From positions 7,429-40,628 of the forward strand of contig PAHB01000116.1 of the NCBI GenBank assembly GCA_002704665.1: DNA of 33,200 nt. The letters are read 5' to 3'. The translations under genes and the position numbers were made by a program. The stretch comes from Pseudomonadota bacterium (lineage in GTDB: Bacteria; Pseudomonadota; Gammaproteobacteria; Burkholderiales; Eutrophovitaceae). The notes under the pieces were generated by a model that was given only the letters and a program-made list of their open reading frames with translations, ran no database searches and was not told the origin of the DNA. Every line of letters begins with the position of its first letter. The stretch's first letter is position 1. Below, piece after piece: positions 1-18,041 of this stretch.

Positions 1-345
1 CTTCATTAAAGTTATCAATATTTTTTTTCAAAGTCAACTACAAAACCTTTAAAACAGATTCTTTAGTGTGTAGCTTTTGCTCCTTATTTTAAACAGTGAC
101 TGATTTTCTCTTTAACCATAATACAATTTATTTATTATCTATTTGCTTTTTTATTAGATGTAAGCTTTTTGTATATTGATGTTGGATTACTTCAATTTCT
201 TCCGAGAAACATTCAACCCATTCAAATAGATATCCACAACGAAAGAACTTGAGAAGAGATACTTGCTGAAATTTATAGACGGTTAGAAATAATGAACCTC
301 ATGTAGAAATCATCCCATCCAGTGCTTCTCCAATATGAGAACAAA

Positions 346-711
346 TCAATCTTGAAACCAAAGGGGTTCGTCTTCCAAGAATTCTTTAACAGAAGATTCT
401 GTTCTAGACGGATAATCCCAATCTTTTTCAGACCTGTATTTCAAGTTTACTTGCATAGAGAAGCTCCCAAAATTAATTTCCGTATCGTCTAATACGATTT
501 GTTTTCCATCATAGAAAATTTTTTCCATAAAATTTCCATAGGACGTTTCTACACTAGTAATAAACACTTTTTTTATGTTGAATGGTTCCTCTAATTCCAG
601 GAATGCACTTCCAAGCCCACCTTTTCCTTCCCCAATTCTGCATAAGACTTTATCTTTAAACCATTTTTCGGGTTCATTAGTTAGTAGCACTTCACGCGCA
701 TCAACCTCCAA
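346..711 (-). CDS. hypothetical protein (only a TTG start; in frame with the 760..957 ORF)
   Basis: 121-codon ORF with no ATG start and no motif I recognise. It shares a reading frame with the upstream 65-codon ORF, separated by a single TAA at 760..762. Confidence 0.4.
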   Translation of the reverse strand: MEVDAREVLLTNEPEKWFKDKVLCRIGEGKGGLGSAFLELEEPFNIKKVFITSVETSYGNFMEKIFYDGKQIVLDDTEINFGSFSMQVNLKYRSEKDWDYPSRTESSVKEFLEDEPLWFQD

Positions 712-759
712 AATATCAGAAAGTGGAAATTCTTCATGTCCCTCGACAGTAATATTTTT

Positions 760-957
760 TTAATCTTTTGCAACAAGCTCTGTAAGTAAAATACCTCCAT
801 CAATTTCCTGTGCAACGTATTCATCTATGGTATCCCCGGGGTAATCGTCCCATGAATCTTGCTCTGGAATATCAAGTTCTGGTAGGTATGATTTTAAGGA
901 AACCTCCATATTGCTACCTATTAAACTGAGTTTGTATTTGAAATTATTACTCGCCAT
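760..957 (-). CDS. hypothetical small acidic protein (possibly the N-terminal part of an interrupted gene)
   Basis: 65-codon ORF with an ATG start. It is in frame with 346..711 (346..957 = 612 nt = 204 codons). Confidence 0.4.
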   Translation of the reverse strand: MASNNFKYKLSLIGSNMEVSLKSYLPELDIPEQDSWDDYPGDTIDEYVAQEIDGGILLTELVAKD

Positions 958-1037
958 CTGCCATCCCCTTCAGTTTGCCACCAACGTAATCGTTAACACT
1001 AGAGTAAATACGAGACAAGATCAACTGTTACACGGTG

Positions 1038-1340
1038 CTATTGAGGCGGTTGCAAGTCGTTGAGATATATAGGTCTGTCAAAGTAACATTGAACTCGATA
1101 CTGGAGTTATCCACTGAGGCTATGTTCAATTACTTCAAAATCGGAGGCTCCGGAAATAAAATCATTCAAAAGAAAACGACCTACAATGAAAATATTTTCA
1201 GCATGCTGTTTTTCGAATAAAAGTCACTTCAATTTTTCGATTTGAATAAAGGACGAAGCAATGAAAATCTCATCACTCTCCTTACTAACAGCATCTTTGA
1301 GAATTTTTTTGAACTCGGATGTTGTTACGATCTGCTTCAT
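1038..1340 (-). pseudogene. decayed ORF with in-frame TGA and TAA, ending at TAG
   Basis: One minus-strand frame reads MKQIVTTSEFKKILKDAVSKESDEIFIASSFIQIEKLK-TGA-LLFEKQHAENIFIVGRFLLNDFISGASDFEVIEHSLSG-TAA-LQYRVQCYFDRPIYLNDLQPPQ-TAG. It reads as protein-like across the stops. Resemblance to the N-terminus of PLD-family nucleases is weak and unverified. Confidence 0.3.
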
Positions 1341-1389: not shown

Positions 1390-2979
1390 ATGAAATTAAG
1401 CACTGTTTTAAGTCATTTGTCTATAACTGATTTGCAAGATGCAATAGGAAAGGACTTGGTTGAAGGAATGTTTAAACTAGGTATGGAGGTTGACTCATTA
1501 TCGCTAGCTAATTTGTTGGCCAATGTAAAAGGAATACATATTATTGAGAAAAGTAAGGATATTCGAAAAAAACTAAGTGATACGCGTGGCGCTTTAGACA
1601 ATTTAAACTGGGATAGACAAAAGAAAGCAAAGTTTATAGCAGGTAACCAGGACTTGATTGCTGATTTAGCACGGCATTGTCAGTTGGACTACCCTATAGT
1701 ACAAGTACCATCTGCTGTTCCTTGGTCATGCAAAACGATTCAGCAGGAGCGTTCGCTCCATCCATATCAAAACTGGATAAGAAGAGCTGTTTCTACTCAA
1801 GTTTTAGGAGATAAAAAGTCGAGGCGATGCATTATACATATGCCCACAGGTTCCGGAAAGACAACTACTGCGATGTCGATCATAGTTGATTATTTTAGGG
1901 CTTGCCATCCGAAACCTACCTCTGTCGTATGGCTTGCAAATAAAAATGAACTTTGTAATCAGGCGATTGAGGAATTTGAGCGCTGTTGGAAAAATCAAGG
2001 TAACGGCTCAGTTCAAGCGCATAGATTTTGGGGTAATTACACCTCGATAGAGAATATCGTCGATGACAAAAGTAATTTTTTCGTTACCAGTTTTCAAAGT
2101 GCCAATAGTTATAAAAATTCTAATGATGATGAAAAGTTTAGTGCTCTTTTGAAGATTAGCAATCAGACTAGTTTAATTTTTGTAGATGAAGCACATATGG
2201 CAATCGCAGATACTTACAGGGCCGTTATTGAAATGCTCGCTCAAACAAGTGCAAAAGTCATTGGTCTAACTGCTACCCCGGGTAGACATCATATTGGTCA
2301 AGATTCAGATGAAACAAAAGAACTCCATAATTTTTTCGAAAACAATATTATTCGTTTTAGAAATAATGAAGGGCAAGAGGTCGATGATCCAATAAATTTT
2401 TTAACTCAAGAGGGATACCTTTCAAGCACGCTTTTTGAGACAATCCCCGGATCGAAGCAAACGTGGTCTGGAAAGGAAAAGACAGAATATCTTGGAAAAC
2501 TTGAGATACCCTCAAATGTGCTAAAGCGAATTGATAATGATACTGAGAGAAGATTAACGGTAATTGCGAAAGCACTTGAATTGGCAAAAGAAGGCAGGAA
2601 AACGATCGTATTTGCACCGAGTGTGGATTCTGCTATTTTAATGAGCATCTTCCTTACAGACAAAGGTTACGAGGCGAGAGCAGTATCTGATAGAAACCAG
2701 TTCGTCGAAAGAACTAAAAATATCGAAGATTTTAAAAACGGAGAATTCAGCATACTTTTTAATTACGATATTTTAACCACAGGATTCGACGATCCGAAGA
2801 TTGATGCGGTGCTGATAGCGCGGCCCACGCTATCTGTGGTTTTGTATGCTCAAATGATAGGGAGGGGTCTGCGAGGTTTAAAACTTGGCGGTACTCAGGA
2901 ATGCAAAGTAGTCATGGTAGAAGATAATATGGAAAATATGCCATCAATTAAAATGGCGAGCACTTATTTTTTAGATTAA
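1390..2979 (+). CDS. Superfamily 2 DEAD/DEAH-box helicase (ResIII/XPB-like core) with an uncharacterised N-terminal region of about 120 aa
   Basis: Q-like LHPYQ, motif I HMPTGSGKTTTA, motif II FVDEAHMA, motif III GLTATPGR, motif VI QMIGRGLRG. 529-aa ORF with an 11-bp gap to the next gene. Confidence 0.9.
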   Translation: MKLSTVLSHLSITDLQDAIGKDLVEGMFKLGMEVDSLSLANLLANVKGIHIIEKSKDIRKKLSDTRGALDNLNWDRQKKAKFIAGNQDLIADLARHCQLDYPIVQVPSAVPWSCKTIQQERSLHPYQNWIRRAVSTQVLGDKKSRRCIIHMPTGSGKTTTAMSIIVDYFRACHPKPTSVVWLANKNELCNQAIEEFERCWKNQGNGSVQAHRFWGNYTSIENIVDDKSNFFVTSFQSANSYKNSNDDEKFSALLKISNQTSLIFVDEAHMAIADTYRAVIEMLAQTSAKVIGLTATPGRHHIGQDSDETKELHNFFENNIIRFRNNEGQEVDDPINFLTQEGYLSSTLFETIPGSKQTWSGKEKTEYLGKLEIPSNVLKRIDNDTERRLTVIAKALELAKEGRKTIVFAPSVDSAILMSIFLTDKGYEARAVSDRNQFVERTKNIEDFKNGEFSILFNYDILTTGFDDPKIDAVLIARPTLSVVLYAQMIGRGLRGLKLGGTQECKVVMVEDNMENMPSIKMASTYFLD

Positions 2980-2990
2980 AGGAGACCCGA

Positions 2991-4769
2991 ATGGTTAAAA
3001 TAGTAGAAGCGAGGTTAGTCTTGGGAATGTTACGCGATCAAGGTTATAAAAATTCGTCCTACGCCATAGGGGAATTAGTCGATAACTCAATTGACGCTGG
3101 TGCTAAAGAGATACGCATTGGAATAGGAACCGAGGATATTTATAAAAACCAGAGATATAGTGAAAATATTTCGGCAATCGGAACTTATGATGATGGACAC
3201 GGTATGAATAGAGAAACCCTTGAACGTTGTCTTGTCATGGGCTTGAGTGTAAAAGGAGAACATGAAAAAAACAATGAGCAAGATAGTGATTTGGGTAAAT
3301 ATGGGATTGGATTAAAGGGCGCAACCTTTGGCTTTTGCAAGAGGGTAGATATATATAGCTGGCAAGATGGTAACAAACCCTTACATACCTATCTTGATTA
3401 CGACGAAGCATTTGATACTAACTCTGATGAGGTCGAAGTACCTAAAGAAACAAATATACCTGATAAATTTCAACACTTTGTTGCTGATAAATTACCTCCA
3501 TCTGGTACGCTAGTCGTATGGACTAAATTGGATAGGATTCGTCCTCGTAAGGCGCCTACGTTACTTGATCATTTAAATAAAGACCTTTGTCGTATTTTTC
3601 GTCACTTTATGGATGACGATGATAATCTTGGAACTAGGAGAAATATCACTGCAACATATTTTAATCCACAAAAGCAAGGCGTAGAAACCAAAACACTCAG
3701 AGCTAACGATCCAATTTATCTTCTTAAACCAAATAATACTCCTGGTTACGAAGATGAAGCGACCAACGAATTGTTAAAAAATGAGAAAAAGAAAGTTCAA
3801 TGTCCAAAAGGGACGGAACAGGTTATTGAAGTGATCACAACTATTGCAAAACCCCAAGTACAAAAAGGCCAAGCAGGAGATCAGGATGTTGGCCGACAAC
3901 CTATTGGTAAACATTATGGAGATAACCTGGGTATAAGTATTGTGAGAGCCGGTAGAGAAATTAGATTAAGCGATTTCGGTTTTACTATCGACGATCCGCG
4001 AGAAAGATGGTGGGGAATAGAAGTGCGTATTCCACCAGAACTTGACCAGTATTTCGGCATAACTAACAACAAACAGGATGCTACGGTATTTAAAAAATTT
4101 GATGAATCAGAAATAGAGGCTTATGAGGAAGACTTAGAAAATGGAGATGAAAACGAAAAAAACGCTGCGGAAGCCCTCCTATTTGTAAACAGAGTCATTA
4201 CAACCTTTCTTCAGACTGCTCGAGACACAATTAGAAAGCGAGGTTCGAATACCCGCAACAAAAACAAAAAAGTAAATGTAAAAACGTTACCTGAGGTAGC
4301 TACGGATATTATTAAGGATAAAGATCGTGATGTTGAAACTGAATCTGAAAAGATTGCTGCAGAAAAAACCGAGGATCAGAAGTTAAAAGAGAAAATTGAA
4401 TTGATTCTTCGCGAAGAGCCGGAATTAGAACCTGAAGACGCGGAACGTCGAGCTAAAGACAGCCTTAACCACATTGTTGATATTTTTGAAGATAATTGGC
4501 CTGGCACCACGTTCTTAGATGTTGAGTTTAAAGGTCAAGGTGTTGTAGGAAAAATCAATAGAACTCACCCCTTTTATCGATTTTTTTATGAACCGTTAAA
4601 AGACAGTGAAGATCAACGAGCTTTTCAAGCCTTGCAAGCTTTGTTGCTCTCATACTTTCGTGCTGAAGACACTCTTTATAATCAACTAGGTCATCAACAG
4701 TTACAAAAGATTCGAAACGAGTGGGGTAGAAAAGCTGAGTTACTGATAGAAACTCTCACTAATCACTAA
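2991..4769 (+). CDS. GHKL (Bergerat-fold) ATPase, MORC/HATPase_c_3-like
   Basis: N box ELVDNSIDAGA, G1 box DDGHGM, G2 box GKYGIGLKGA. A downstream segment (GISIVRAGREI...WWGIEVRIPPELDQYFGITNNKQD) resembles the MORC-type transducer region, followed by a charged coiled-coil-like stretch. AAGGAG Shine-Dalgarno lies 6 nt upstream of the ATG. Confidence 0.85.
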   Translation: MVKIVEARLVLGMLRDQGYKNSSYAIGELVDNSIDAGAKEIRIGIGTEDIYKNQRYSENISAIGTYDDGHGMNRETLERCLVMGLSVKGEHEKNNEQDSDLGKYGIGLKGATFGFCKRVDIYSWQDGNKPLHTYLDYDEAFDTNSDEVEVPKETNIPDKFQHFVADKLPPSGTLVVWTKLDRIRPRKAPTLLDHLNKDLCRIFRHFMDDDDNLGTRRNITATYFNPQKQGVETKTLRANDPIYLLKPNNTPGYEDEATNELLKNEKKKVQCPKGTEQVIEVITTIAKPQVQKGQAGDQDVGRQPIGKHYGDNLGISIVRAGREIRLSDFGFTIDDPRERWWGIEVRIPPELDQYFGITNNKQDATVFKKFDESEIEAYEEDLENGDENEKNAAEALLFVNRVITTFLQTARDTIRKRGSNTRNKNKKVNVKTLPEVATDIIKDKDRDVETESEKIAAEKTEDQKLKEKIELILREEPELEPEDAERRAKDSLNHIVDIFEDNWPGTTFLDVEFKGQGVVGKINRTHPFYRFFYEPLKDSEDQRAFQALQALLLSYFRAEDTLYNQLGHQQLQKIRNEWGRKAELLIETLTNH

Positions 4770-5003
4770 ATACTAAGTGATCCTATTAATAATTATTGAG
4801 GAAAAAAATTAATTTTGAACTTGAAATCTTTCTATTGGCTTTAGCACGATTGGCCGAAACAGGAGCTCTGAGAAAAGACAAATATAAGTTTAATCAGATA
4901 TTTTTGCATCTGTATATTTTGTATCGTTTTTAGAAATGGGAAAGCTTTTTATCTTTTGATGCTGTAAATGTTATTAAGTCAATTTCTTAAAAAAACTCGA
5001 TAT

Positions 5004-7562
5004 CTAGGTAAGAGCGAGAAACGATTCGGCACTTTTTACTTGAGGGACTCTTTTTCCTGACGATGCACTTAACATCAAAACAATTTGCTGATTGTTATCG
5101 GGTCCGTAGCTTACATGTATAGGGTTATTGTTCCCATAAAAATAGAGTCTGTCGAAAGGAGTATTGCTAACCGTCCATTGCGCTACTTCTAACATGTTTT
5201 CATCGGCAACTAAAAAATCTACTGCAGCTCCAACCCGTTCACAAATAAGACGGCCATTTTTTTTTACTTCATAACTAGCATGTTGATCCCGCGAGGGGTC
5301 GATTCTAGTTTTGATTAGTTTAGAAAGTGCCATGGATGAGAACCCGTAGGTTAACTCTATCATTCCGAAATATTCGACAACTGGTTCAAGAATAAATCGA
5401 CATAAGTCAGCAAGAGCATTATATGTTTCGGGTTGTTCAGGAAGGTTCTCGCATCCAGTGCGTGCTTGGGTCTCTCCGCATCTTATAAGGTCAATGTAGC
5501 GGAAGTTATTACTACATTTGTCTTCGATATTTGGTATATCTAAAATTCTTGATAGAGTGAAATTGTTGATTTTCCATCTATAGCGCTTAAGTTCTGAATC
5601 AAAAGTGTTTCTTTTTGGTCCGAACTGATCAAAATTAAATATCTTTAAATCTTGAAGAGCCTCATCAAATGCAAGTTGTTTAGAATATTCAGGATATTCT
5701 TCATTGATATAACGTGTTTTTAAATATAGGTAAGGCGCATCTTGAACCTCCTCATAGTTAAAATATTCAATATCCTGTTCAATGAGTTTGACTTTCACTC
5801 GTTCTCTCATTATCGGAAGTGCTTGATTATGGAAATCGTCAAATCGGCATAATGTGATTTTGCCAGATAAGATATGAATTTTAACGAGGTCAGCATTCTT
5901 AAAATCTCCGTACAGCAATGATGCAACTCCAATATAAATTCGTAAAATGGGAGCGAGTTGTTCTACCAAAGAAACGTGTAGCTCTAAAGATCGTCCTTCA
6001 ATTAATCGGCCTAAACCTTTTTCACTTGCTTCCTTACATGCTTGCTCAATAAGGTTTGTGTCGGATATCTCATAAAGTATTTTGCGAGCTTCGGATTCCG
6101 CTGCCTTGAGAGAACCAAAAAAAGTTTTTATATCTAGCTGTAGTGTTTTTTCCATTGTCTTGTAAGGACGACGTTTTTGAAAAATATTCAGCGCTAAATA
6201 CACCTTAAGATCGTCGACTTTTAAATCTCTGGCTGTTTCCAGAACCTCGTCGCCTTTTATTTCTCGCAGTAAACGGAAGGTTTTATTAATTGTACCGAAC
6301 TCTGAAATGAGATTGTCTAAGTTAACGCATTCTGTTTCGTGTGGTTTTCTGCCCAATCGTAGTGACAAAAGCCAAAATTCATCTAATAGTTCTTTATGTT
6401 GTTCGTACTTTTCTAAAAGACGATCTGCTTTGGTTTTAGTGTTCGCGTATAAACGGTGTCGCGGTGCATGCAAAAGATTACGTTTGGTCCTCTGTCTATC
6501 GATTAGAAACCGTTGTTCAAACTCTTTGTCCTTAAACAGATAAATAACACCCGGTGCGACTGGAATTGGTTCCTCTCCGGTTACCTGTTCGATAAACGTT
6601 TTGATTTCAGTTTGCGAGAAGTATTTTTGGAATGTGCCTCTCTTTGTGAGAACTCCATCTGCAAAGGCATCTCCCCCTTTGTTGCTGCTGTTTGATAGCA
6701 TAACTGACACTACTAGTAGTTTATTCGCCAGTTTATATGCGTTGGTTAAAGCCTCTATTCGCTCGTCACGGTCTTCAATGACGTTAATTACAAAACCTAG
6801 ATTTACAATATCTGCACATTGAAGGTTTTGTTCAGAAGCATAATAGGGATCCCAACCGCTTGCTTGTATACCGTTTTCGACTAATCCTCGTAAGTCGTCA
6901 CCTTTACCGCAACCGTAATCAAATAAGGTGAGTTCATTTTTGATAAGGCCGTGTCTTGATAGACTTTGGATAGGCGCGGAAAAGTTGTAACGAACCATAG
7001 CAGTTCGATGACGCGCCGACTGCCAGTCATTTGAAATAGAGTCGTTAACTTCCGGAGCATCTTCATTGCCTAGGGGTAAAAATTGATGCTCTATTACTTG
7101 GTAGCCCTTTGCAAAAATAAGTTCTTCCCAATATTTCAAGAATCCGATACTTACGGAATTTTCGAAAAGCCCAATCGCTTCAGCTTGCTCTGTAAGTTCA
7201 CTAAAAAGATTTTTTTGAGGATGATCTCCGGGGAGAAGCAACTCTTTACGATGAAGAATGGGAGGATTATAAGAATATTGATAGGTTCGGTAAGACGCGG
7301 TCTCCTTGGCTAGATTAACTGTCCATGATTCTCTCAATACAGGAAAACCCTCTGAGAAAAAATCTGGATAGTTGAGTAAAGAAAAGCTTTGTTTCTCCTT
7401 ATCGACGGAGAATACGTTGAATGCCCGGCCTCGTTCGACCGAAGCAAGTTTTTCAGCTTGAATAAGTGCTTCAATTAAATTTTTGTCAAAATCTTCTGAG
7501 TCTATGGCGCAAATATGGAAATATCTGCGGTTTCCGACAATTTTTCCAGTTAATTCACCCAT
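5004..7562 (-). CDS. DNA phosphorothioation-associated putative SAM methyltransferase, large multidomain form (852 aa) with a possible C-terminal M15/hedgehog-type peptidase-fold domain
   Basis: SAM motif I LFDYGCGKGDD, then GWDPYY and NLGFVINVIEDRDER, matching my recollection of family TIGR04096 (dnd-associated methyltransferase). C-terminal DQHASYEV...GAAVDF resembles the S-x-H-x-x-G-x-A-x-D signature of the M15 fold (tentative). Divergently adjacent to sspA. Confidence 0.75.
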   Translation of the reverse strand: MGELTGKIVGNRRYFHICAIDSEDFDKNLIEALIQAEKLASVERGRAFNVFSVDKEKQSFSLLNYPDFFSEGFPVLRESWTVNLAKETASYRTYQYSYNPPILHRKELLLPGDHPQKNLFSELTEQAEAIGLFENSVSIGFLKYWEELIFAKGYQVIEHQFLPLGNEDAPEVNDSISNDWQSARHRTAMVRYNFSAPIQSLSRHGLIKNELTLFDYGCGKGDDLRGLVENGIQASGWDPYYASEQNLQCADIVNLGFVINVIEDRDERIEALTNAYKLANKLLVVSVMLSNSSNKGGDAFADGVLTKRGTFQKYFSQTEIKTFIEQVTGEEPIPVAPGVIYLFKDKEFEQRFLIDRQRTKRNLLHAPRHRLYANTKTKADRLLEKYEQHKELLDEFWLLSLRLGRKPHETECVNLDNLISEFGTINKTFRLLREIKGDEVLETARDLKVDDLKVYLALNIFQKRRPYKTMEKTLQLDIKTFFGSLKAAESEARKILYEISDTNLIEQACKEASEKGLGRLIEGRSLELHVSLVEQLAPILRIYIGVASLLYGDFKNADLVKIHILSGKITLCRFDDFHNQALPIMRERVKVKLIEQDIEYFNYEEVQDAPYLYLKTRYINEEYPEYSKQLAFDEALQDLKIFNFDQFGPKRNTFDSELKRYRWKINNFTLSRILDIPNIEDKCSNNFRYIDLIRCGETQARTGCENLPEQPETYNALADLCRFILEPVVEYFGMIELTYGFSSMALSKLIKTRIDPSRDQHASYEVKKNGRLICERVGAAVDFLVADENMLEVAQWTVSNTPFDRLYFYGNNNPIHVSYGPDNNQQIVLMLSASSGKRVPQVKSAESFLALT

Positions 7563-7760
7563 TGGTCTTGTTTGTGAGAACGTTACGCGGATTCTACATA
7601 AACCGGCGCCTCTTCTCTTACTTAAAAGCTCCTTTTAGTTTTTTTTAATTTTTTTATAACAATAACAGTAACTTATAACAATCTGAGACCGCTGCTTGTA
7701 GACTTTACGGAATAGAGCTAAACTGCATTTAAGTTAACTAGATTTTACGGATGTTACAAG

Positions 7761-9209
7761 TTGTTACGTGATGCTCCACTAGAGATTCAGGGAAGAGTAT
7801 ACCATCCCACTTCATCTGTTATAAAGCAGTTGCAAGTTACGAGACAAACGCTATGGCGTTGGAGGAAGAGAGGGCTGATACCGCCTGGACATAGCCTCCC
7901 AAACAGAAGAGTTTACTATACTGACGCTGAAGTCGAAAAAATTTGGGCTTACTGTCGACAGGTTGAACAGAATGCTGTCATTAATCAGATTTCACTTTTT
8001 GAAGAGTCATCGATTAACATTAAGAACGACTCATCGCTGTCTGAGACCGACATATATTTAGATAATAATGCTACCACTCAAACATTGAAGTCAGTTCGGC
8101 AAGGGATGATGAAAAATTTAGAAGAGGGATTTGGCAATCCTTCTAGTTCCCATAGTAGGGGTAGTAAAGTCAGAGAGGCCGTTTTTTTAGCGCGAAAAAA
8201 CGTGGCTGAATTAGTTGGCACGGAACCTGAAAATATCATTTTCACTTCTGGTGCAACTGAGTCGAATAACATGGTTCTTCGATCTTTTGCTGATCCTTCA
8301 ACTGACCACATTATTACAACGGCCATCGAACATTCTTCTATTGCTAAACCGTGTAACTATTTAGAGAGTCAGGGAGTGCGCTTGAGTCGAATGAATGTGA
8401 CGGCAGAGGGGCGACTAAACGTTGCTGAGCTTGAGCAAATTTTGTTGACTGAAAAACCTACTCTTGTTGCGCTACACTGGGTTAACAGCGAAACAGGGGT
8501 TATCCAACCGATAGAAGAGATTGCGAGACTATGTCGAGCGCATAAGGTACCTCTGTTGTGCGATGCTGCACAAGCTGTTGGTAGAATTCCGATTGAATTA
8601 GACATGGTTGATGTTGATTTCCTTACAGCATCAGCGCACAAGTTTCATGGGCCACCTGGAGTTGGTATTTTAGCTACTAAAAGTAGTCAATTGATCAAAA
8701 GTCTGGTACTCGGTGGAGACCAGGAGTCAGCTATGAGGCCAGGAACGGAGAATGTCCCAGGTATTGTCGGTCTTGGTATCGCGGCTGATGAGAGAAATAA
8801 AAGTTTGGTTGAAATTTCTTGCGAAATATCTGAATTAAGAGACAGCTTTGAGCGGAAGATTATCGAGAGATTGCCATTCGTAAAAGTTAACGGGGACATT
8901 AATAACAGGGTTTGCAATACATCAAACTTACAGTTCACCGGTATAGATGGACAAGTGTTGTTGGCACAGTTTAATTCGGCGGGTATCTATTGTTCTCAAG
9001 GATCAGCCTGTTCGAGTGCGATACCTGAAGCGTCCCCGGTACTGACTGCGATGGGATTGTCTAGAGATGAGGCGAATTCAAGTATTCGTTTTTCATTCAG
9101 CGCTTTGAATTCTAAAGACGATGTAATAAAAGCAGTTGAAAGAATTGTAGAAAAGACGCTTTTTGTTAAGGATATGACAGAAAAATTGGGGATGACTCGT
9201 GCTAGCTAA
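7761..9209 (+). CDS. sspA: Cysteine desulfurase (SspA/DndA-like, NifS/IscS family) with an N-terminal extension of about 95 aa containing an HTH
   Basis: Class V aminotransferase core starts at IYLDNNATTQ. PLP lysine in SAHKFHGPPGVG, catalytic cysteine loop SQGSACSS. N-terminal SSVIKQLQVTRQTLWRWRKRGLIPP resembles a MerR/excisionase-type HTH. TTG start; no in-frame ATG before the desulfurase core. Confidence 0.85.
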   Translation: MLRDAPLEIQGRVYHPTSSVIKQLQVTRQTLWRWRKRGLIPPGHSLPNRRVYYTDAEVEKIWAYCRQVEQNAVINQISLFEESSINIKNDSSLSETDIYLDNNATTQTLKSVRQGMMKNLEEGFGNPSSSHSRGSKVREAVFLARKNVAELVGTEPENIIFTSGATESNNMVLRSFADPSTDHIITTAIEHSSIAKPCNYLESQGVRLSRMNVTAEGRLNVAELEQILLTEKPTLVALHWVNSETGVIQPIEEIARLCRAHKVPLLCDAAQAVGRIPIELDMVDVDFLTASAHKFHGPPGVGILATKSSQLIKSLVLGGDQESAMRPGTENVPGIVGLGIAADERNKSLVEISCEISELRDSFERKIIERLPFVKVNGDINNRVCNTSNLQFTGIDGQVLLAQFNSAGIYCSQGSACSSAIPEASPVLTAMGLSRDEANSSIRFSFSALNSKDDVIKAVERIVEKTLFVKDMTEKLGMTRAS

Positions 9210-9219
9210 TGGAACAAAG

Positions 9220-10083
9220 ATGAAGTTCGGAGCTCATCAGACTTTTGCTTTACGCGAAGGTTGGCTTCATAAAGGAGTCAGGCTGTTGGAGTCAGGTCAG
9301 GCTAATTTTGAAAGTGATGACGCTCAAAATAAGCTTGGAGTTGGTCGCAACATGGTTAAGTCAATTAAATTTTGGATGCAGCTTACGGGCTTAATTGAAA
9401 AGAACACGCAAACAGGCAACGTAGAACTGTCGCCCTTGGCTCAATTAATCAGTCAACACGATCCGTATTTCATCGAAAATGAGACCTGGTGGGCGTTACA
9501 CGTTAATATGACTACTCATAAAGAATCGCCTTGGTGCTGGTTTTTTGAAAATTTTCGAGGAGATAAGTTTGATCGAGCGCAATGTATTGAACAACTAAAC
9601 CGGTTCGTTCGGGTTGGGAACAAAAGGCCTCCTCAAATAAAAACTATTCAGCGGGAAGTGGCATGTCTTCTGCAAACTTATGGTCAGTCGATACCTGCCG
9701 AAAGGACCGATCCTGAGGATGGTAATGATTGTCCTTTCATTCGGCTTAATTTATTACAGCATTTCAAAGAGTCTGGAGCCTTTCGGTTTCAAAAGAACAC
9801 TTCTTTTCCGACTGCGAAAGAAATACTTTGTTATGCGTTAGCTAAACAATTTAACAATGGGTTTGACATTCGTCTACAAGAAGCGGTGGCGGCGACTTGC
9901 TCTTTATTTAAGATAGATGAAGACGTTCTTGTTATAACGATTGAAGAAGCTATTGCTGAGTTTGGATCGGAGAAGATCAACTTGATTAATCAGGCGGGAG
10001 AAAGGTTGATTACCATGGATTTTGATCTATGTTGGCTAAAAACTTTTTACCTTAATAGCAATCGAACACGTAACGCGGCTTAA
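9220..10083 (+). CDS. sspB: DUF4007-family protein (SspB-like, proposed nickase of the Ssp system)
   Basis: N-terminus MKFGAHQTFALREGWLHKG matches my recollection of the DUF4007 start. Sits between the desulfurase and the large ATPase. The ORF track starts at GTG 9199; ATG 9220 is more likely. Confidence 0.7.
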   Translation: MKFGAHQTFALREGWLHKGVRLLESGQANFESDDAQNKLGVGRNMVKSIKFWMQLTGLIEKNTQTGNVELSPLAQLISQHDPYFIENETWWALHVNMTTHKESPWCWFFENFRGDKFDRAQCIEQLNRFVRVGNKRPPQIKTIQREVACLLQTYGQSIPAERTDPEDGNDCPFIRLNLLQHFKESGAFRFQKNTSFPTAKEILCYALAKQFNNGFDIRLQEAVAATCSLFKIDEDVLVITIEEAIAEFGSEKINLINQAGERLITMDFDLCWLKTFYLNSNRTRNAA

Positions 10084-10104
10084 ATATTGATGAGCGCCAA
10101 GTAA

Positions 10105-13100
10105 ATGAGCATGAATATACAATTTTTAAAATCGATAAACATTCTTCAAGATATTGAATATCCTGAACGGCTTCTACACTTTCGGCCGACTATGAAGTCT
10201 GTTTCCCTTTTGAATCGATTGCTGTTACGGGGAGATTTCAGAGAACGGACTTATTCCGTGATCGCACCTTATGGAACAGGGAAGTCACTTACGTGTGCAT
10301 ATCTCACACAACTCGTTGAAAATAGAACTACCCATGATACAGAACTACTAATCCATACCGTATCAGATCGCATGGTTGCGGTGGATCCTGCTTTAGCGTC
10401 GTTTTCTCGGGAGCGGATGTCCAGCAAGTTCAAAGGAATGGCGATAGCACTCGAAGGTTACCAACCTAATCTTGTAGAGTCCCTACGAGAAGCCACGGTC
10501 AGTGCGATTAAACGCAACAAACTTGGTCGAGTTCCAACGGCGTTCACCATGTCCAAAGAAGAAGAGGTGCAGGTTAATCAAGGTCGAGCATTAGATAAAT
10601 TGTTAACGGCTTTAGTGAAATTCGCTGAAAAGAAAAAAGTTGATAGGATAGTTCTAGTCTGGGATGAGTTTGGCCGACATCTAGAAGAATTAGTAGGGAA
10701 TGGGCAAGGACCGGCTTTAGCGATCGTGCAACAGCTCGCGGAGAAAATCGCTAGGGTGACGGACCTTACTATAAGTTTTGCCACAATCACCCACCGTGCC
10801 TTTAACTCCTACCAAGAAAACCTGCCTACCAACGAGCAGCAAGAGTGGAATAAGGTTAACGGTCGATTCACAAGCTACTCATATACGGACGACACTATTG
10901 AAATCTATGAGTTGCTTGGTGATGTGATTGATGGACTTCAAATATCCTCGGGCGCTTCAAAAAAAAATCTAAAGACAACTGCTGAAAGATTGTTATCTGT
11001 TCGGCTTTTTTCAGATTTTAAAATCGATCGCTTAATAAACTTATTAGATTCGATTGGCTCCACTGATCCAATCGCCTTTTATCTTTTACCTCTGTTAGCC
11101 GCGCGGACTGCTCAAAATGAACGAACAATGTTCAGTTTTCTCCAAGCTTTTCCTCATGATAAGCCTATCGGAGTTGATGAGCTTTATGAGTATTTTTCTC
11201 CGTCTATGGAGATGGATCGTGGCGTCGGCGGATCGAATCGCGTTTGGCTCGAAACAGAGAGTGCCTGTGCAAAGGTTGATACCGATCAAGAAAAAACGAT
11301 CTTGAGACTGACTAGCCTGCTCGGGTTAACTTTAAAAGAGAAAGGTATTAAAGTTACTCCAAAATTGCTCTCCACAGTAGCATCCATAGGTCCTCGCTCA
11401 AAAAAGTCTGTTGATCAAACTATTCGCTCTCTTATGGACCGGAATTTGCTTCTACATCGCACACATACTGATGTGGTTTCTTTGTGGCACGGAACAAGTA
11501 CTGATCTCAAAGAACGTCTTCGAGATTTAGAAGCTTCTGAACGACAACGACTCGATTTAATTGAATTTTTAAAGCAAGAGTATCCATGCGCGTCGATAAA
11601 ACCAGTGCGATACAACGATCAAAATGCTATTCGCCGATTCTTCATAAGACACTATGTATCTAGTGGTCTATTCATTGGACAAGAATATGGCCGACTAAGT
11701 CTCGGTATGGAAGCAAATGTGGACGGAACAATTCACTATATATTTGTAGAGAACGAAAATGATCGAAAGAAAGTGATCGAAAAGTTACACGAGGATGAGG
11801 TAGAGAAGAGGAGACTGTTTGCGGTCGTCGATCTTCCCGCAGGGATAAGAGATGCGGCGGTAGAATTGTCAGCGCTACGATTGCTAGCAAATGACGAAGA
11901 ATTGATAGGACAAGATCCTTTAATAGGAGATGAAATCTCACAAAAAATTGATGACGTTTTGGCCTATCTTGAGAAACAGGTCGATTTTTTGTTGCGACCG
12001 GAAAACATTATCAGTTGGTATCATAATGGAGAAAATATCTTGATCCGAAGCCAGTCTGAGTTACTCGAAAAATTATCGTCTATCATGGATTTAACTTTTG
12101 GAGAGACGCCTTATATTAATAATGAGATGATTAATCGGTTTACTCCGAATGCCTCTCAGGTGAGTGCTCGCAAGAAGGTTTCTCTCGGGATTCTTGAACG
12201 ATACGGACATGAGCGATTAGGAATCAAAGGGGAAAACGCGGATAAAGCGATTTTTAGAAGTGTATTACTAGAGACCGGCCTATATATTCCGAGCGAACCC
12301 GATAGTGAGTTACGGTGGCGTTTCGTGCTTCCCAGTGAAATCTCAGATTCGAATCAGAGATTGAAAAACGTTTGGATGAAATTTGAGAGTTTCCTTACCC
12401 AACCAAAAAAAGGAAAAAAAGAATTTAAAGAGTTTTTTCGACACCTTGAGAGTCCTCCTATTGGTTTACGAACAGGAATAATCCCGATTTTACTTGCCGC
12501 AGGGCTAAAGGCATTCCCGAATGTGGGTTCGATAGCAAGACGCAACGGGGACTCAATCAATGATTTAACGCCCTCAGAGATTGAGGATATTTGCAGGAAG
12601 CCAGAAGACTTTTTTCTTACTGTAATTGAGATAGATGAGCAGAAGCAAGAATTTCTGAAAGGGATTATATCGCTCTTTTCTAGGGAAGGGGAAGAGAACA
12701 CTATTGAGGGTGCGGGATTGTTGAAAACTGCTCATGAAGCGGTAGTCGATTGGAGCGTTGTAGAGCTTGGTAAAGGAGCACGCGAGTCTAGATTGATTAA
12801 GGGTGAAACGCGAAAGTTACAGCGGGCTTTAAGGCGATTAAATGATCCGCAAAAGTTGTTGCTTGAAGATCTTTTCAAACTAGGAGGGACGGAGGCAACT
12901 GTGCAGAAGCGCTTATTGAAACTTGAGACTCTTAAAAAAGAAATGGAAGAGCTTCCTAAAACATATCAGAATCTGGCAACTCGACATATAATTCTTGCCT
13001 TAGATGATGGGGTGCCTAAAACGGAACTCAATTTGCTTGAAACACTGAAATCCTGGCAAGGTGAGGTTGGTGGTCAAATTAAAGAAAAAAATCTCTCAGC

Positions 13101-13473
13101 TGAAGCAAATCTACTTTTGAAGAGTCTGAATTCGGCTTATTTAACTGAAAGTTCTGCAATTGAGAGAATCGGCCTAGTAGTTACAAACCAGATTTTTAAA
13201 CATTGGTCTGATGAAATATTGCAATTATTTCGATTGAAATTTAATGACAATATTAGCACTATAGAAGCCGAAGTTCTGATAAATAGTCAAGGGAATCAGG
13301 AAACCCTTAAGAGCCGGATGTTGAGGAATAGATTACTCAAATTGGCTGGGGCCCTGAAAGATGAGGTCGGCGAGGCGGACACGCTGAGTTACCTTTTAGA
13401 ACTTCAACAATCACTTACTGAAGAGGGGACATTATCTAATGCCAACAGTCAAAGACGCGATAGAAAACTCTGA
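10105..13473 (+). CDS. sspC: Large P-loop NTPase (SspC-like)
   Basis: Walker A APYGTGKS, Walker B-like IVLVWDEFGRHLE, long helical C-terminal region (1122 aa). Lies between the DUF4007 and PP-loop genes. Its 3' end overlaps the next gene by 35 nt. Confidence 0.7.
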   Translation: MSMNIQFLKSINILQDIEYPERLLHFRPTMKSVSLLNRLLLRGDFRERTYSVIAPYGTGKSLTCAYLTQLVENRTTHDTELLIHTVSDRMVAVDPALASFSRERMSSKFKGMAIALEGYQPNLVESLREATVSAIKRNKLGRVPTAFTMSKEEEVQVNQGRALDKLLTALVKFAEKKKVDRIVLVWDEFGRHLEELVGNGQGPALAIVQQLAEKIARVTDLTISFATITHRAFNSYQENLPTNEQQEWNKVNGRFTSYSYTDDTIEIYELLGDVIDGLQISSGASKKNLKTTAERLLSVRLFSDFKIDRLINLLDSIGSTDPIAFYLLPLLAARTAQNERTMFSFLQAFPHDKPIGVDELYEYFSPSMEMDRGVGGSNRVWLETESACAKVDTDQEKTILRLTSLLGLTLKEKGIKVTPKLLSTVASIGPRSKKSVDQTIRSLMDRNLLLHRTHTDVVSLWHGTSTDLKERLRDLEASERQRLDLIEFLKQEYPCASIKPVRYNDQNAIRRFFIRHYVSSGLFIGQEYGRLSLGMEANVDGTIHYIFVENENDRKKVIEKLHEDEVEKRRLFAVVDLPAGIRDAAVELSALRLLANDEELIGQDPLIGDEISQKIDDVLAYLEKQVDFLLRPENIISWYHNGENILIRSQSELLEKLSSIMDLTFGETPYINNEMINRFTPNASQVSARKKVSLGILERYGHERLGIKGENADKAIFRSVLLETGLYIPSEPDSELRWRFVLPSEISDSNQRLKNVWMKFESFLTQPKKGKKEFKEFFRHLESPPIGLRTGIIPILLAAGLKAFPNVGSIARRNGDSINDLTPSEIEDICRKPEDFFLTVIEIDEQKQEFLKGIISLFSREGEENTIEGAGLLKTAHEAVVDWSVVELGKGARESRLIKGETRKLQRALRRLNDPQKLLLEDLFKLGGTEATVQKRLLKLETLKKEMEELPKTYQNLATRHIILALDDGVPKTELNLLETLKSWQGEVGGQIKEKNLSAEANLLLKSLNSAYLTESSAIERIGLVVTNQIFKHWSDEILQLFRLKFNDNISTIEAEVLINSQGNQETLKSRMLRNRLLKLAGALKDEVGEADTLSYLLELQQSLTEEGTLSNANSQRRDRKL

Positions 13474-14245
13474 AACAAATGAATACCGACATATTGTGAG
13501 CGTCTCTGGAGGCAAAGACTCCACGGCACTTGCTATTTATATGCAGCAAGAATATCCCGATCTTTCGACGGAATACGTGTTCTGTGATACCGGCTCGGAG
13601 CTTCCTGAAACTTATGAATATCTCGACAAGTTAGAAGTTGTCTTGGGAAAAAAAATTCAAAGATTAAATGCGCTAGAGGGGCTTAACATACGAAAGCGCC
13701 CGGGGCGCTCAGCATTTGAGTTTTTGTTAAAAGAGCTTTATGGAGGGTATCTTCCTTCTCCTCGAGCTAGATGGTGCACATCCACTCTTAAAATCATACC
13801 TTTTGAAAAATATGTGGGAGAGGACAAGGCATACAGTTATATTGGTATCCGTGCTGATGAAGATCGAGAAGGCTATACATCAAGAAAGCCTCCAGCACTT
13901 TCCGAGTTGCCTAATATTATTCCCGTTTATCCCTTCAAGGACGCTGATCTGGGTTTAGAGGATATAAACGATATTCTAGCTGACGCGGGCATAGGCTTGC
14001 CAAAGTATTATGAATGGCGTTCGCGTTCTGGATGTTACTTTTGTTTTTACCAGCAGATAGGAGAATGGCAAGGGCTCAAAGAGCGTCATCCAGATTTATA
14101 CGAGAAGGCGAAAGCATTTGAAAAGACAGAAGGTGATAAGAAATTCACTTGGGTTGATGGTCGCACGTTGTCTGACGTCGAGAAAATTAAGAAGCGTTAT
14201 GAAATCAAAAGTGTAAAAGATGGGTGTGCTATCTGTCACCTTTAG
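13439..14245 (+). CDS. sspD: PP-loop ATP pyrophosphatase, PAPS reductase family (SspD/DndC-like)
   Basis: PP-loop SVSGGKDS near the N-terminus. Cysteine clusters SGCYFCFYQ and GCAICHL at the C-terminus. Overlaps the preceding ATPase gene. Confidence 0.85.
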   Translation: MPTVKDAIENSETNEYRHIVSVSGGKDSTALAIYMQQEYPDLSTEYVFCDTGSELPETYEYLDKLEVVLGKKIQRLNALEGLNIRKRPGRSAFEFLLKELYGGYLPSPRARWCTSTLKIIPFEKYVGEDKAYSYIGIRADEDREGYTSRKPPALSELPNIIPVYPFKDADLGLEDINDILADAGIGLPKYYEWRSRSGCYFCFYQQIGEWQGLKERHPDLYEKAKAFEKTEGDKKFTWVDGRTLSDVEKIKKRYEIKSVKDGCAICHL

Positions 14246-17850: not shown

Positions 17851-17967
17851 GCTGATCGTCGTTGGTACTGGACGATAGTTGATACTATAAGATACTAAGT
17901 GCTTGATATCGTTGCAATAAGTTTGTTTTATTGGATAAAGCTGGATGGTGCTGGAATGGGGTAAATG

Positions 17968-18041
17968 CGCCCTGAGCAGGATTCGAACCTGCGACTTCAC
18001 CCTTAGGAGGGGTGCGCTCTATCCAGCTGAGCTACCAGGGC
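17968..18041 (-). tRNA. tRNA-Arg (anticodon CCU)
   Basis: Minus-strand sequence GCCCTGGTAGCTCAGCTGGATAGAGCGCACCCCTCCTAAGGGTGAAGTCGCAGGTTCGAATCCTGCTCAGGGCG folds as a cloverleaf: 7-bp acceptor stem with one G-U, D arm GCTC/GAGC, anticodon stem CACCC/GGGTG with loop CTCCTAA, T arm GCAGG-TTCGAAT-CCTGC. CCA is not fully encoded. Confidence 0.85.

Follow-up and report, generated by a model that had tools for sequence, protein, structure and literature searches.

An SspABCD phosphorothioation island with SspE and a helicase and MORC-like GHKL ATPase pair from a module that recurs beside sspBCD in many phyla

The SspABCD family of writers installs single-strand phosphorothioates, for example C-ps-CA. 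One described restriction partner of this family is SspE (Xiong et al. 2020; SspBCDE in PADLOC), and another is SspFGH (Wang et al. 2021, PMC8092258), which is encoded by several genes, includes an ATPase and can occur together with SspE; all that is described of its SspF is a Walker A motif, and of its SspH a C-terminus like that of FtsK/SpoIIIE (PMC8092258). In published censuses some 84% of sspBCD loci have no known restriction partner (PMC8092258), and authors have asked whether these orphans are true orphans or have undiscovered partners. Linked to DndCDEA is PbeABCD (CxC-ABC/DndE; PMC6459918, re-annotated in PMC10853773), in which PbeA is a fusion of HKD and SF2, PbeC a CxC ABC ATPase and PbeD a DndE (PMC10853773). 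Helicases also adjoin nucleases in DISARM (DrmA helicase, DrmB DUF1998 protein, DrmC PLD nuclease, methylase) and in the operons of Iyer, Abhiman & Aravind 2008 (PMC2292703), whose description makes no mention of phosphorothioate, Dnd, PAPS reductase or Ssp genes.

We compared these systems with a locus in a stretch of 33,200 nucleotides, hereafter the window. An earlier note on this DNA had called genes for a helicase, a GHKL ATPase, a methyltransferase and SspABCD; the open reading frames were found where it had placed them, and the calls are right (Table 1).

Table 1. Features of the locus, in window positions.
Feature	Position	Strand	Evidence
Pseudogene of the module's PLD/HKD nuclease (X5)	131-1340	-	X5 HMM, tblastn, three-frame reading
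SF2 (ResIII/DEAD-type) helicase, first module gene	1390-2979	+	Pfam ResIII 5e-26, Helicase_C 9e-15
MORC/SMCHD1-like GHKL ATPase (modelled fold), second module gene	2991-4769	+	HATPase_c_3 1.6e-19; Foldseek
852-aa 'DNA phosphorothioation-associated putative methyltransferase' (TIGR04096)	5004-7562	-	570.9 bits against a cut-off of 150
SspA cysteine desulfurase, N-terminal MerR-type HTH extension	7761-9209	+	PADLOC SspA 403 bits, 2.6e-121; Aminotran_5 1e-73
SspB (DUF4007)	9199-10083	+	PADLOC SspB 255 bits, 1.7e-76; DUF4007 1.9e-57
SspC, BrxC-like ATPase, 1122 aa	10105-13473	+	PADLOC SspC 433 bits, 4.8e-130; BrxC 7e-47
SspD, PAPS-reductase-like sulfurtransferase	13439-14245	+	PADLOC SspD 314 bits, 2.3e-94; PAPS_reduct 4.3e-10
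Integrase, P4-type	16534-17742	-	Arm-DNA-bind_3, Phage_int_M and Phage_integrase matches
tRNA-Arg(CCT), likely integration site	17967-18041	-	ARAGORN

The writer set is complete, as had been claimed: sspA, sspB, sspC and sspD are contiguous and co-directional (7761-14245), all four PADLOC models are matched with 255-433 bits, and Pfam Aminotran_5, DUF4007 and PAPS_reduct concur. The MerR_1 match in SspA covers residues 18-71 (1e-6, Pfam). Judged by sequence, the SspABCD of this island would be expected to phosphorothioate DNA. The likeness to SspABCD-SspE extends to a protein on the same contig that matches the C-terminal 490 positions of the SspE model; however, this sspE is not contiguous with sspD, and a second, non-SspE module and the methyltransferase gene lie between sspE and sspABCD.

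The headline of the earlier note, an Ssp module without a recognisable SspE, holds only inside the window and therefore fails for the locus. Among the ORFs within the window, Pfam and PADLOC gave no SspE match. On the window's own contig, however, sspE lies 1.56-3.17 kb to the left of window position 1, with its stop codon at 1.56 kb; such a gene past the left edge is what the note itself had named as refuting its proposal. L084:1-1605 matches PADLOC SspE with 339 bits (E=1.3e-101, model positions 282-771 of 771), as well as Pfam GmrSD_C (4.6e-8) and the tail of GmrSD_N. In SspE a DUF262 (GmrSD_N) NTPase domain is joined to a DUF1524 (GmrSD_C) HNH nuclease domain; the portion seen here is the C-terminal 534 aa, and the N-terminal ~240-280 aa, including the DUF262 core, fall beyond the contig end in both assemblies. 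SspE also accompanies the module in eight other loci, usually as its direct neighbour, much as SspE has been published as compatible with SspFGH (PMC8092258). If the window's strain restricts DNA at all, SspE is the most likely agent.

The claimed absence of the remaining partners was borne out. All ORFs of at least 80 aa in the window's share of the island were compared with Pfam, PADLOC or both (the ORF at 346-711 also with NCBIfam), and the PADLOC hits listed for island ORFs (for the helicase, the best 25 of 26) include none to DndF, DndG, DndH or SspFGH. Identity of the module with SspFGH was rejected on the published description of the latter, as the helicase is of the SF2/ResIII and not the FtsK/HerA kind and the ATPase is a GHKL and not a P-loop protein. 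SspFGH is thus built from other protein families than the SF2 helicase, MORC-like GHKL ATPase and PLD nuclease of the module, but its logic, to damage DNA that lacks phosphorothioates, is likely analogous.

The two intact module genes are separated by 12 nt in the window. The helicase retains its motifs GSGKT, DEAH, TATP and QMIGRGLR. The GHKL protein comprises a Bergerat ATP-binding domain, an S5-like transducer domain and a helical C-terminal region, and it keeps all 35 invariant columns of a family that numbers 1362 cluster representatives (50% identity) at E<=1e-30. Its AF2 model (pLDDT 90) finds SMCHD1, MORC2/3/4 and Hsp90 as best Foldseek matches (E about 1e-13), and the predicted fold is MORC/SMCHD1-like. 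Membership of the helicase in TIGR04095 (dnd_restrict_1, a PT-system restriction enzyme) was rejected at 56.6 bits against a cut-off of 600, with only model positions 22-192 of 451 matched.

The earlier note had described the left border of the block as decayed ORFs. The decay is real; it is not random, and represents the remains of the PLD nuclease gene of the helicase/GHKL module, which we denote X5. An HMM of 54 intact X5 proteins has one match at 1331-1125 (E=6e-11, model positions 3-71) and a weak second one at 229-149 (model positions 273-300), and tblastn agrees with it on the remnants. The N-terminal remnant (1340 to 1107) is interrupted by an in-frame stop at 1224-1226, and the C-terminal one spans about 262 to 131. 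Between them, in place of the middle part with the HKD catalytic motif, stands an unrelated reading frame of ~200 aa (346-957) with one stop. No HKD motif (H.K....D/E; HxK(x)4D(x)6GSxN) is present in any frame of the minus strand of 1-1389. The pseudogene sequence is identical in assembly L085 and differs by 1 nt in L084. Intact X5 relatives, by comparison, have ~310 aa, carry the HKD motif and match PLDc_2/PLDc. Since its nuclease gene is a pseudogene, the helicase/GHKL arm of the window's strain has probably lost DNA cleavage; that helicase and GHKL are intact all the same may reflect a nuclease-independent role or very recent decay.

With X5 included, the module resembles PbeA in placing HKD and SF2 chemistry beside a phosphorothioate writer. 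In PbeA, however, the two are fused, whereas here they are separate genes joined by a GHKL ATPase; the CxC ABC ATPase, DndE and small protein of PbeABCD are missing, and an Ssp writer takes the place of Dnd. The helicase gives 87 bits against PADLOC PbeA, in its SF2 part only (model positions 248-617 of 672), and PADLOC returned no hits to PbeC or PbeD. Membership in PbeABCD was rejected, because only the SF2 part matches PbeA and the HKD protein is separate in relatives and a pseudogene here. DISARM likewise combines a helicase, a PLD nuclease and a modification gene; in contrast to it, this locus has a GHKL ATPase and no DUF1998 protein, and the helicase has no match to the DrmA models. Matches of X5 to DrmC models are weak (33 bits). 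There is also a likeness in gene content to the operons of Iyer 2008, in which a MORC-like GHKL+S5 ATPase is joined to an SF2 helicase of the Rad25/ResIII type, with an HKD nuclease present in relatives. The window has the fold and the adjoining helicase of the MORC-type GHKL + SFII helicase operons, and their nuclease is present in the family though a pseudogene in the window. The 2008 paper links those operons to DNA methylases, whereas here sspBCD is the conserved partner.

This partnership emerged from 80 genome loci collected with homology to GHKL as the sole criterion, from Pseudomonadota, Actinomycetota, Cyanobacteriota, Chloroflexota, Planctomycetota, Bacteroidota, Gemmatimonadota, Spirochaetota and one thaumarchaeon. 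The helicase is directly upstream of GHKL in 72/79 loci, and a nuclease accompanies the pair in 62/79 (X5 in 53, X11 in 5, HNH in 6), with a Cap4-like or HNH nuclease in place of PLD in other lineages. No nuclease was recognised in the other 17, several of which are short and some of which have adequate downstream sequence. Median gaps between ORF calls are -16 nt from helicase to GHKL and +1 nt from GHKL to X5. The pair that the earlier note had taken as effector unit is thus real but incomplete, its third gene being the PLD/HKD nuclease that is pseudogenised in the window. Among the 47 loci with at least 8 kb on both sides, 44 have at least two of SspB/C/D within 10 kb, often in the same operon, and the proposed coupling of helicase/GHKL to Ssp is thus strongly supported, across many phyla. 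Of the three exceptions, L058 has a single one of SspB/C/D and L027 and L067 have none of them within that distance. On plasmid A of Trichormus variabilis ATCC 29413, a co-directional array runs from sspD through helicase, ATP-binding protein and PLD to cysteine desulfurase, and the same gene set is found on Mesorhizobium pOM4. Conversely, in a sample seeded with sspD (n=44), the module is present in 5-10 loci and SspE in 2.

One could suppose that helicase-GHKL(-PLD) is an autonomous MORC-type defence that has come to lie beside Ssp only through defence-island clustering and does not depend on phosphorothioates. Operons of MORC + SFII helicase (+ HKD/REase) have indeed been predicted to act as R-M-like systems in their own right (PMC2292703). 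With full flanks, L027 and L067 show the pair but no Ssp gene within 10 kb, and none is seen in L056 either, whose downstream flank reaches only ~2.5 kb; and in the window the GC content of helicase/GHKL is 0.37-0.39 against 0.415-0.43 for ssp. Nevertheless, the 44/47 loci with sspBCD stand against about 3% of genomes that carry sspBCD (PMC12914056). Moreover, 32 loci have sspD upstream of the module in the same orientation (median gap 300 nt; at most 500 nt in 17 of the 32), the module sits between sspD and sspA in cyanobacterial operons, and no consistent alternative modification partner, DNA methyltransferase or other, was identified in the loci examined. We therefore regard autonomy as distinctly improbable.

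That same insertion into cyanobacterial ssp operons could be read as a sign that helicase and GHKL serve the modification side, for instance by scanning DNA, choosing targets or processing the nicks made by SspB, with the nuclease as an optional add-on. The persistence of both genes in the window despite nuclease decay would fit, as would the 17/79 loci without a recognised nuclease and L175, where a helicase of this family has the methyltransferase after it in place of GHKL and PLD. However, SspBCD(+IscS) sets modify DNA in E. coli without such a helicase or ATPase (PMC8092258), and a helicase or GHKL is found in only 10/44 of the sspD-seeded loci. Furthermore, nuclease families replace one another at this one position, as is usual in effector modules. 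A modification-side role thus appears unlikely.

The methyltransferase bears on the larger proposal of the earlier note, a three-part system without SspE, SspFGH or DndFGH, in which ATPase and helicase would be the sole effector and the methyltransferase an obligatory co-modifier. The TIGR04096 (dnd_rel_methyl) match spans residues 182-671 of the protein, which combines a class-I SAM core (about residues 195-345) with N-terminal, helical and C-terminal domains; its gene is divergent from sspA. It had been called a PT-associated fusion; homologues are indeed named 'DNA phosphorothioation-associated putative methyltransferase' at NCBI/JGI, but the protein is the standard full-length form of a large family rather than a special fusion. 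There are 3608 homologues, of which the best 120 have 768-901 aa, mostly at 96-100% query coverage (lowest 88%). Its AF2 model (pLDDT 84) has Foldseek matches to generic class-I SAM methyltransferases only, and its C-terminus a weak, below-threshold match to Peptidase_M15_3 (E=0.028). Tight co-variation with helicase/GHKL, tested across loci, was not found: the gene is present in 16/47 full-flank module loci and absent from 31/47. It also occurs with SspA and no helicase/GHKL on the sequenced side in L001 (81% identical methyltransferase), with sspBCD and helicase but without GHKL in L175, and alone, in housekeeping or other contexts without Ssp, in L002/L003 and L176. The methyltransferase is thus a facultative accessory. 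The tie of helicase/GHKL to Ssp in other genomes, the 16 loci with a 'PT-associated' methyltransferase and the lack of a match to SspE, SspFGH or DndFGH inside the window speak for the three-part system; against it are the sspE on the same contig, the pseudogenised nuclease of the pair and the many loci without the methyltransferase, and we consider it highly improbable.

Between sspD and the P4-type integrase lie an LLM oxidoreductase and small ORFs, which confirms that unrelated cargo separates block and integrase, and the tRNA-Arg(CCT) follows. Most sister contigs with identical GlnRS stop just beyond this tRNA. The remark on base composition also stands (GC 0.37-0.43 for the block against ~0.29-0.42 for the core), though the block is heterogeneous. 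The block would form the interior of an island that is integrated at tRNA-Arg and varies between strains of an uncultured marine gammaproteobacterium, an island that would hold the SspABCD writer, SspE, the arm of helicase and MORC-like GHKL ATPase, and the facultative TIGR04096 methyltransferase.

The best explanation of the locus, to which we assign a probability of roughly 70%, is an island with SspABCD, SspE, a second restriction-type arm from the conserved, sspBCD-tied helicase-GHKL-PLD module, and a facultative methyltransferase. In the complete arm, a GHKL ATPase dimer would clamp DNA and the helicase would translocate along it, and together they would deliver or license the nuclease on DNA without the host phosphorothioate pattern. 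Analogues of such a mechanism are the Dnd-linked HKD+SF2 protein PbeA, the subunits of Type I/III restriction enzymes, and SspFGH/DndFGH. The gene identities, the linkage counts, the pseudogene and the presence of SspE are direct results, whereas phosphorothioation itself, the module's restriction role and its polarity, and its inactivity in this strain are inferred.

Because it lies beside sspBCD in nearly all full-flank loci, the module is a concrete candidate for one of the sought-after partners of orphan sspBCD. In the open-access literature we found no paper that links it to Ssp. We would give even odds to the broader proposition that helicase, MORC-like GHKL ATPase and PLD (or swapped) nuclease form a third SspBCD-coupled restriction class, distinct from SspE and SspFGH and unnamed in that literature, which covers an appreciable share of the ~84% 'orphan' loci and provides the first prokaryotic MORC ATPase tied to DNA backbone modification. 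If so, prokaryotic MORC ATPases, relatives of the eukaryotic MORC/SMCHD1 silencing ATPases, would gain a defined epigenetic mark to read. The window's locus is poorly suited to experiments, since its second arm has lost the nuclease and the island also has SspE. The module is, however, present in culturable strains and plasmids, including Trichormus variabilis ATCC 29413, Mesorhizobium onobrychidis, Streptomyces specialis, Rhodococcus and Pseudoalteromonas atlantica.

Family scans and an ORF listing of the window bore out the gene calls of the earlier note. Its proposal that the helicase and GHKL ATPase act as an effector coupled to the phosphorothioate (PT) writer SspABCD led to a finding that extends well past this locus.

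Features of the locus, by position in the window
Feature	Position	Strand	Evidence
X5 nuclease, C-terminal remnant	~262-131	-
Reading frame of ~200 aa in place of the X5 core	346-957	-	one in-frame stop
X5 nuclease, N-terminal remnant	1331-1125	-	X5 model positions 3-71, E=6e-11
SF2 helicase, 529 aa	1390-2979	+	ResIII 5e-26, Helicase_C 9e-15
GHKL ATPase, 592 aa	2991-4769	+	HATPase_c_3 1.6e-19
Methyltransferase, 852 aa	5004-7562	-	TIGR04096 571 bits (cut-off 150)
SspA, SspB, SspC, SspD	7761-14245	+	PADLOC 403, 255, 433, 314 bits
SspA alone	7761-9209	+
P4-type integrase	16534-17742	-
tRNA-Arg(CCT)	17967-18041
lexA and two co-directional ORFs (200 aa, 514 aa)	20895-23038

With a profile from an alignment of 53 GHKL homologues as the only query, contigs from one genome per species gave 527 confirmed stretches, of which the best 80 were kept; their gene content was determined by tblastn with the window's proteins and by unsupervised clustering of all ORFs. 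These best 80 of 527 come from a wide range of bacterial phyla and, in one case, from a thaumarchaeon; the GHKL family as a whole comprises 1,362 representatives of 50%-identity clusters (profile search, E<=1e-30). A helicase of the same family lies directly upstream of the GHKL gene, on the same strand, in 72 of 79 loci. A third gene, X5, encodes a protein of ~310 aa with an HxK(x)4D(x)6GSxN motif that matches PLDc_2/PLDc and, weakly, DrmC, and has a conserved C-terminal half of ~180 aa; it is found in 53 loci, in 45 of them directly downstream of GHKL. The three genes are tightly packed, with median gaps between ORF calls of -16 nt (helicase-GHKL) and +1 nt (GHKL-X5). Loci lacking X5 carry other nucleases in its stead: X11, a Cap4-like endonuclease downstream of GHKL (5 loci), or an HNH protein upstream (6 cyanobacterial or planctomycete loci). 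Overall, a nuclease partner could be recognised in 62 of the 79 loci.

This helicase-GHKL-nuclease module is closely linked to Ssp genes. Among the 47 GHKL-seeded loci with at least 8 kb on both flanks, 44 contain at least two of SspB, SspC and SspD, 39 contain all three, and 2 contain no Ssp gene; sspBCD is reported in ~3% of genomes (PMC12914056). In 32 loci sspD lies upstream on the same strand, at a median gap of 300 nt. On plasmid pOM4 of Mesorhizobium onobrychidis, genes for an HTH regulator, a DEAD/DEAH helicase, an ATP-binding protein and a PLD-like protein converge on those for PAPS reductase, SspC and DUF4007, with a cysteine desulfurase next. On plasmid A of Trichormus variabilis ATCC 29413, a TIGR04096 methyltransferase is divergent from one co-directional array of DUF4007, SspC, PAPS reductase, two hypotheticals, a DndB-like protein, helicase, ATP-binding protein, PLD and cysteine desulfurase. 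Both are cultured strains; the ssp and module genes carry locus tags AVA_RS27535-27570 on plasmid A and IHQ72_RS36095-36125 on pOM4, and Pseudoalteromonas atlantica NBRC 103033 is a further strain with the gene set. Chance co-location is a poor explanation for a module embedded between sspD and sspA. The idea of an Ssp-coupled helicase/GHKL effector is thus strongly supported by the 44 of 47 full-flank loci and becomes a more general, testable finding, of which the window holds a degraded copy. Two helicase-GHKL pairs have no Ssp gene within 10 kb on each side (L027, L067) and a third has none in its available flanks, only ~2.5 kb downstream (L056). Conserved neighbours of L027 and L056 fall into ORF clusters c16 and c33-c37, and those of L067 into c21-c23 plus X11; the module may exist here in versions that are coupled to another system.

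We also viewed the association from the writer's side, in 80 metagenome loci seeded with sspD, counting the 44 with at least 4 kb downstream of that gene. Helicase or GHKL occurs in 10 of the 44, both in 5, and SspE in 2; thus, in this biased sample, the module is at least as frequent as SspE. A TIGR04096 methyltransferase is present in 11 and a DndB-like gene in 7. A second DUF4007-like gene directly follows sspD in 13 of the 44, itself followed in several by an SspC-like gene. Loci with this second gene (L095, L097, L114, L116, L119, L120, L123-L125, L135, L142-L144, L148 and L152) may point to a further partner that recurs with Ssp systems, or to duplication of their scanning module.

The AF2 model of the GHKL protein (pLDDT 90) finds its best structural matches in the SMCHD1 ATPase module, the MORC2/3/4 ATPases and Hsp90 (E ~1e-13). 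In the alignment consensus, its second domain carries a 'GISxVRAGREL' motif that resembles, by eye and from two sequences compared, the MORC-specific S5 motif (PMC2292703). Iyer et al. predicted that operons of MORC and SFII helicase, with or without an RE-fold or HKD nuclease, function like restriction-modification systems; that paper mentions neither phosphorothioate nor Dnd nor PAPS reductase (PMC2292703). The helicase aligns to PADLOC PbeA over the SF2 part only. PbeA combines an HKD endonuclease and an SF2 helicase in one fusion protein and lies next to Dnd writers (PMC10853773); the module linked to Ssp is therefore 'split PbeA-like', with nuclease and helicase as separate genes and a MORC ATPase added. 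Other identities were rejected: the helicase scores 56.6 bits against a cut-off of 600 for TIGR04095 ('PT restriction enzyme'), and Mza, Hma, DISARM and BREX yield weak partial matches only (MzaB 53, DrmC 33, BrxHI 19 bits).

In the window, matches to X5 proteins and to the X5 HMM fall on the minus strand, next to the helicase on its upstream side; L004, the closest GHKL relative, has this divergent arrangement too. The N-terminal remnant runs into an in-frame stop after ...IQIEKLK (1224-1226) and a second at ~1107; the C-terminal remnant reads 'FEWVECFSEEIEVIQHQYTKSLHLIK', compared with 'FEWAEYLHGDFEVIPHKHTKSLAMKI' in the GHKL-seeded locus L020. No frame of the remnant region shows the ~200 intervening model positions, HKD motif included; an unrelated reading frame with no Pfam or PADLOC match takes their place. 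An exact-sequence look-up with the window's GHKL protein returned two more assemblies of the locus: L084, a Tara scaffold of 20,958 nt (99.99% identical to the window over 14.8 kb), and L085 (100% over 13.3 kb). Because the remnant region is the same in L085 and differs by one base in L084, an assembly or sequencing error is an unlikely source of the apparent decay. Judged by its sequence, the module's nuclease is dead in the window. The helicase retains its motifs and the GHKL protein all 35 invariant columns, perhaps because the decay is recent or because the two genes have a role that needs no nuclease.

L084 also bears on the restriction partner. The earlier note had described SspABCD as lacking SspE, SspFGH and DndFGH; indeed, no window ORF matches SspE, and among the PADLOC hits listed for window ORFs none is to SspFGH or DndFGH. 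L084, which reaches 3,167 nt further left than the window, opens within a gene on the plus strand; the last 534 residues of its product match PADLOC SspE (E=1.3e-101, 339 bits, model positions 282-771 of 771), Pfam GmrSD_C (DUF1524) and the final part of GmrSD_N (DUF262). The stop codon of this gene is 1,562 nt to the left of window position 1. Only this C-terminal part is visible, as both contigs start inside sspE, past the N-terminal DUF262 core. The absence of SspE thus holds within the window but fails for the locus, a flanking sspE being the outcome the earlier note itself had named as refuting it. Neither sspE nor sspFGH is found at 83.9% of 2,678 sspBCD loci (PMC8092258), so absence of a known partner is common rather than unusual. 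We ruled out an SspFGH identity for the helicase, GHKL and methyltransferase trio against the descriptions in the defining paper: SspF is characterised there by a Walker A motif alone, SspH has a C-terminus like that of FtsK/SpoIIIE, and no further homology is given, whereas the trio consists of an SF2 helicase, a GHKL ATPase and a SAM methyltransferase (PMC8092258). Elsewhere, SspE is paired with the module in 8 loci, usually adjacent, which mirrors the published additive arrangement of SspE and SspFGH (PMC8092258). L084:1780-3001, the stretch from 1.4 to 0.17 kb left of window position 1 that separates sspE from the PLD remnant, holds three minus-strand ORFs of 115, 99 and 112 aa with no Pfam or PADLOC match.

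The methyltransferase is more loosely attached. Its family has 3608 homologues. In most of the best 120 (768-901 aa) the match spans 96-100% of the query, with 88% the lowest value, and an alignment of 40 sequences has a mean column identity of 60%; the family is large and well conserved, and the 852-aa architecture is normal for it. Whole-chain Foldseek of its model returned only generic class-I SAM methyltransferases. For the C-terminal domain, a PDB sequence search gave no match and Pfam Peptidase_M15_3 falls below threshold, a lead only; one TIGR04096 homologue carries the NCBI name 'Peptidase M15A'. The methyltransferase accompanies the module in 16 of the 47 full-flank loci. Its closest relative (L001, 81% identical) is divergent from an 86%-identical sspA, with no helicase or GHKL on the sequenced side. 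On a 1.9-Mb contig (L175:7985-12568), sspBCD, a DndB-like gene and a same-family helicase are followed by the methyltransferase, with no GHKL or PLD, which suggests that the helicase family can pair with either GHKL and PLD or the methyltransferase. In L176 the methyltransferase has no Ssp gene within 10 kb. In Allochromatium palmeri (L002/L003:9405-13464) a 52%-identical TIGR04096 protein is flanked by an AmpD-like amidase and a TonB-like gene, and no Ssp or Dnd gene lies within 10 kb; the family's 'PT-associated' name may overstate the link to phosphorothioation. Co-variation with helicase/GHKL, which the earlier note had proposed as a check, is accordingly loose. A system of three obligatory parts and no SspE is refuted by this distribution and by the flanking sspE, and we treat the methyltransferase as a facultative accessory.

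As a family, SspABCD systems put single-strand phosphorothioates on host DNA. In the mechanism we propose, SspABCD would write the host PT pattern and SspE, if intact, would act on foreign DNA; SspE senses phosphorothioate and nicks foreign DNA (PMC13251355). Helicase-MORC-PLD would most plausibly be an ATP-driven clamp and translocase that licenses the nuclease on DNA without the host PT pattern, an analogy drawn from PbeA, Type I/III restriction subunits and SspFGH/DndFGH. In cells without sspBCD, SspFGH and DndFGH are toxic or SOS-inducing, and SspE is inert. Unrestrained SspFGH is toxic to PT-less cells and is likened to unrestrained DndFGH (PMC8092258), so loss of the nuclease in the window may, speculatively, relieve self-damage. 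Our search of the open-access literature found no paper linking an SF2 helicase/MORC/PLD module to Ssp, and a May 2026 paper from the Ssp-defining group names no Ssp partners other than SspE and sspFGH (PMC13251355). The module's components and general logic are already known; its partnership with Ssp appears undescribed.

To the right of the ssp genes lie an LLM-class oxidoreductase, small ORFs, the integrase and tRNA-Arg(CCT), and beyond the tRNA core genes (glnS, dgkA, lexA, lptF/G genes and others); the helicase/GHKL/methyltransferase/SspABCD block is thus carried by an island that has inserted at tRNA-Arg in an uncultured marine gammaproteobacterium. GC content is 0.37-0.39 for helicase/GHKL, 0.415-0.43 for ssp and roughly 0.29-0.42 for the core. 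Across the window and the 3.2 kb to its left there is no repeat of the tRNA-Arg 3' end of at least 13 nt; the island's left end lies further out. Most sister contigs with identical GlnRS (L166-L172) stop ~270-370 nt past glnS, at tRNA-Arg. Island proteins are found on 2-3 contigs compared with 10-13 for core proteins, and the island is therefore probably variable between strains. Within it, SspA bears an N-terminal MerR-type HTH extension at residues 18-71 (PF13411 E=1e-6; PADLOC 'mad1' 7e-8), giving 482 aa compared with ~380-390 aa for most SspA in related loci; alignment to the L001 SspA, the closest relative (86% identity), begins at residue 1. The HTH may be a fused autoregulator of the divergent promoter region between the methyltransferase gene and sspA. 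In the core, the 200-aa and 514-aa ORFs after lexA lie in the window's lowest GC (0.29-0.31) and have no Pfam or PADLOC match; they are conserved in sister contigs L166-L168 and, with lexA, may form an unknown LexA-linked operon.
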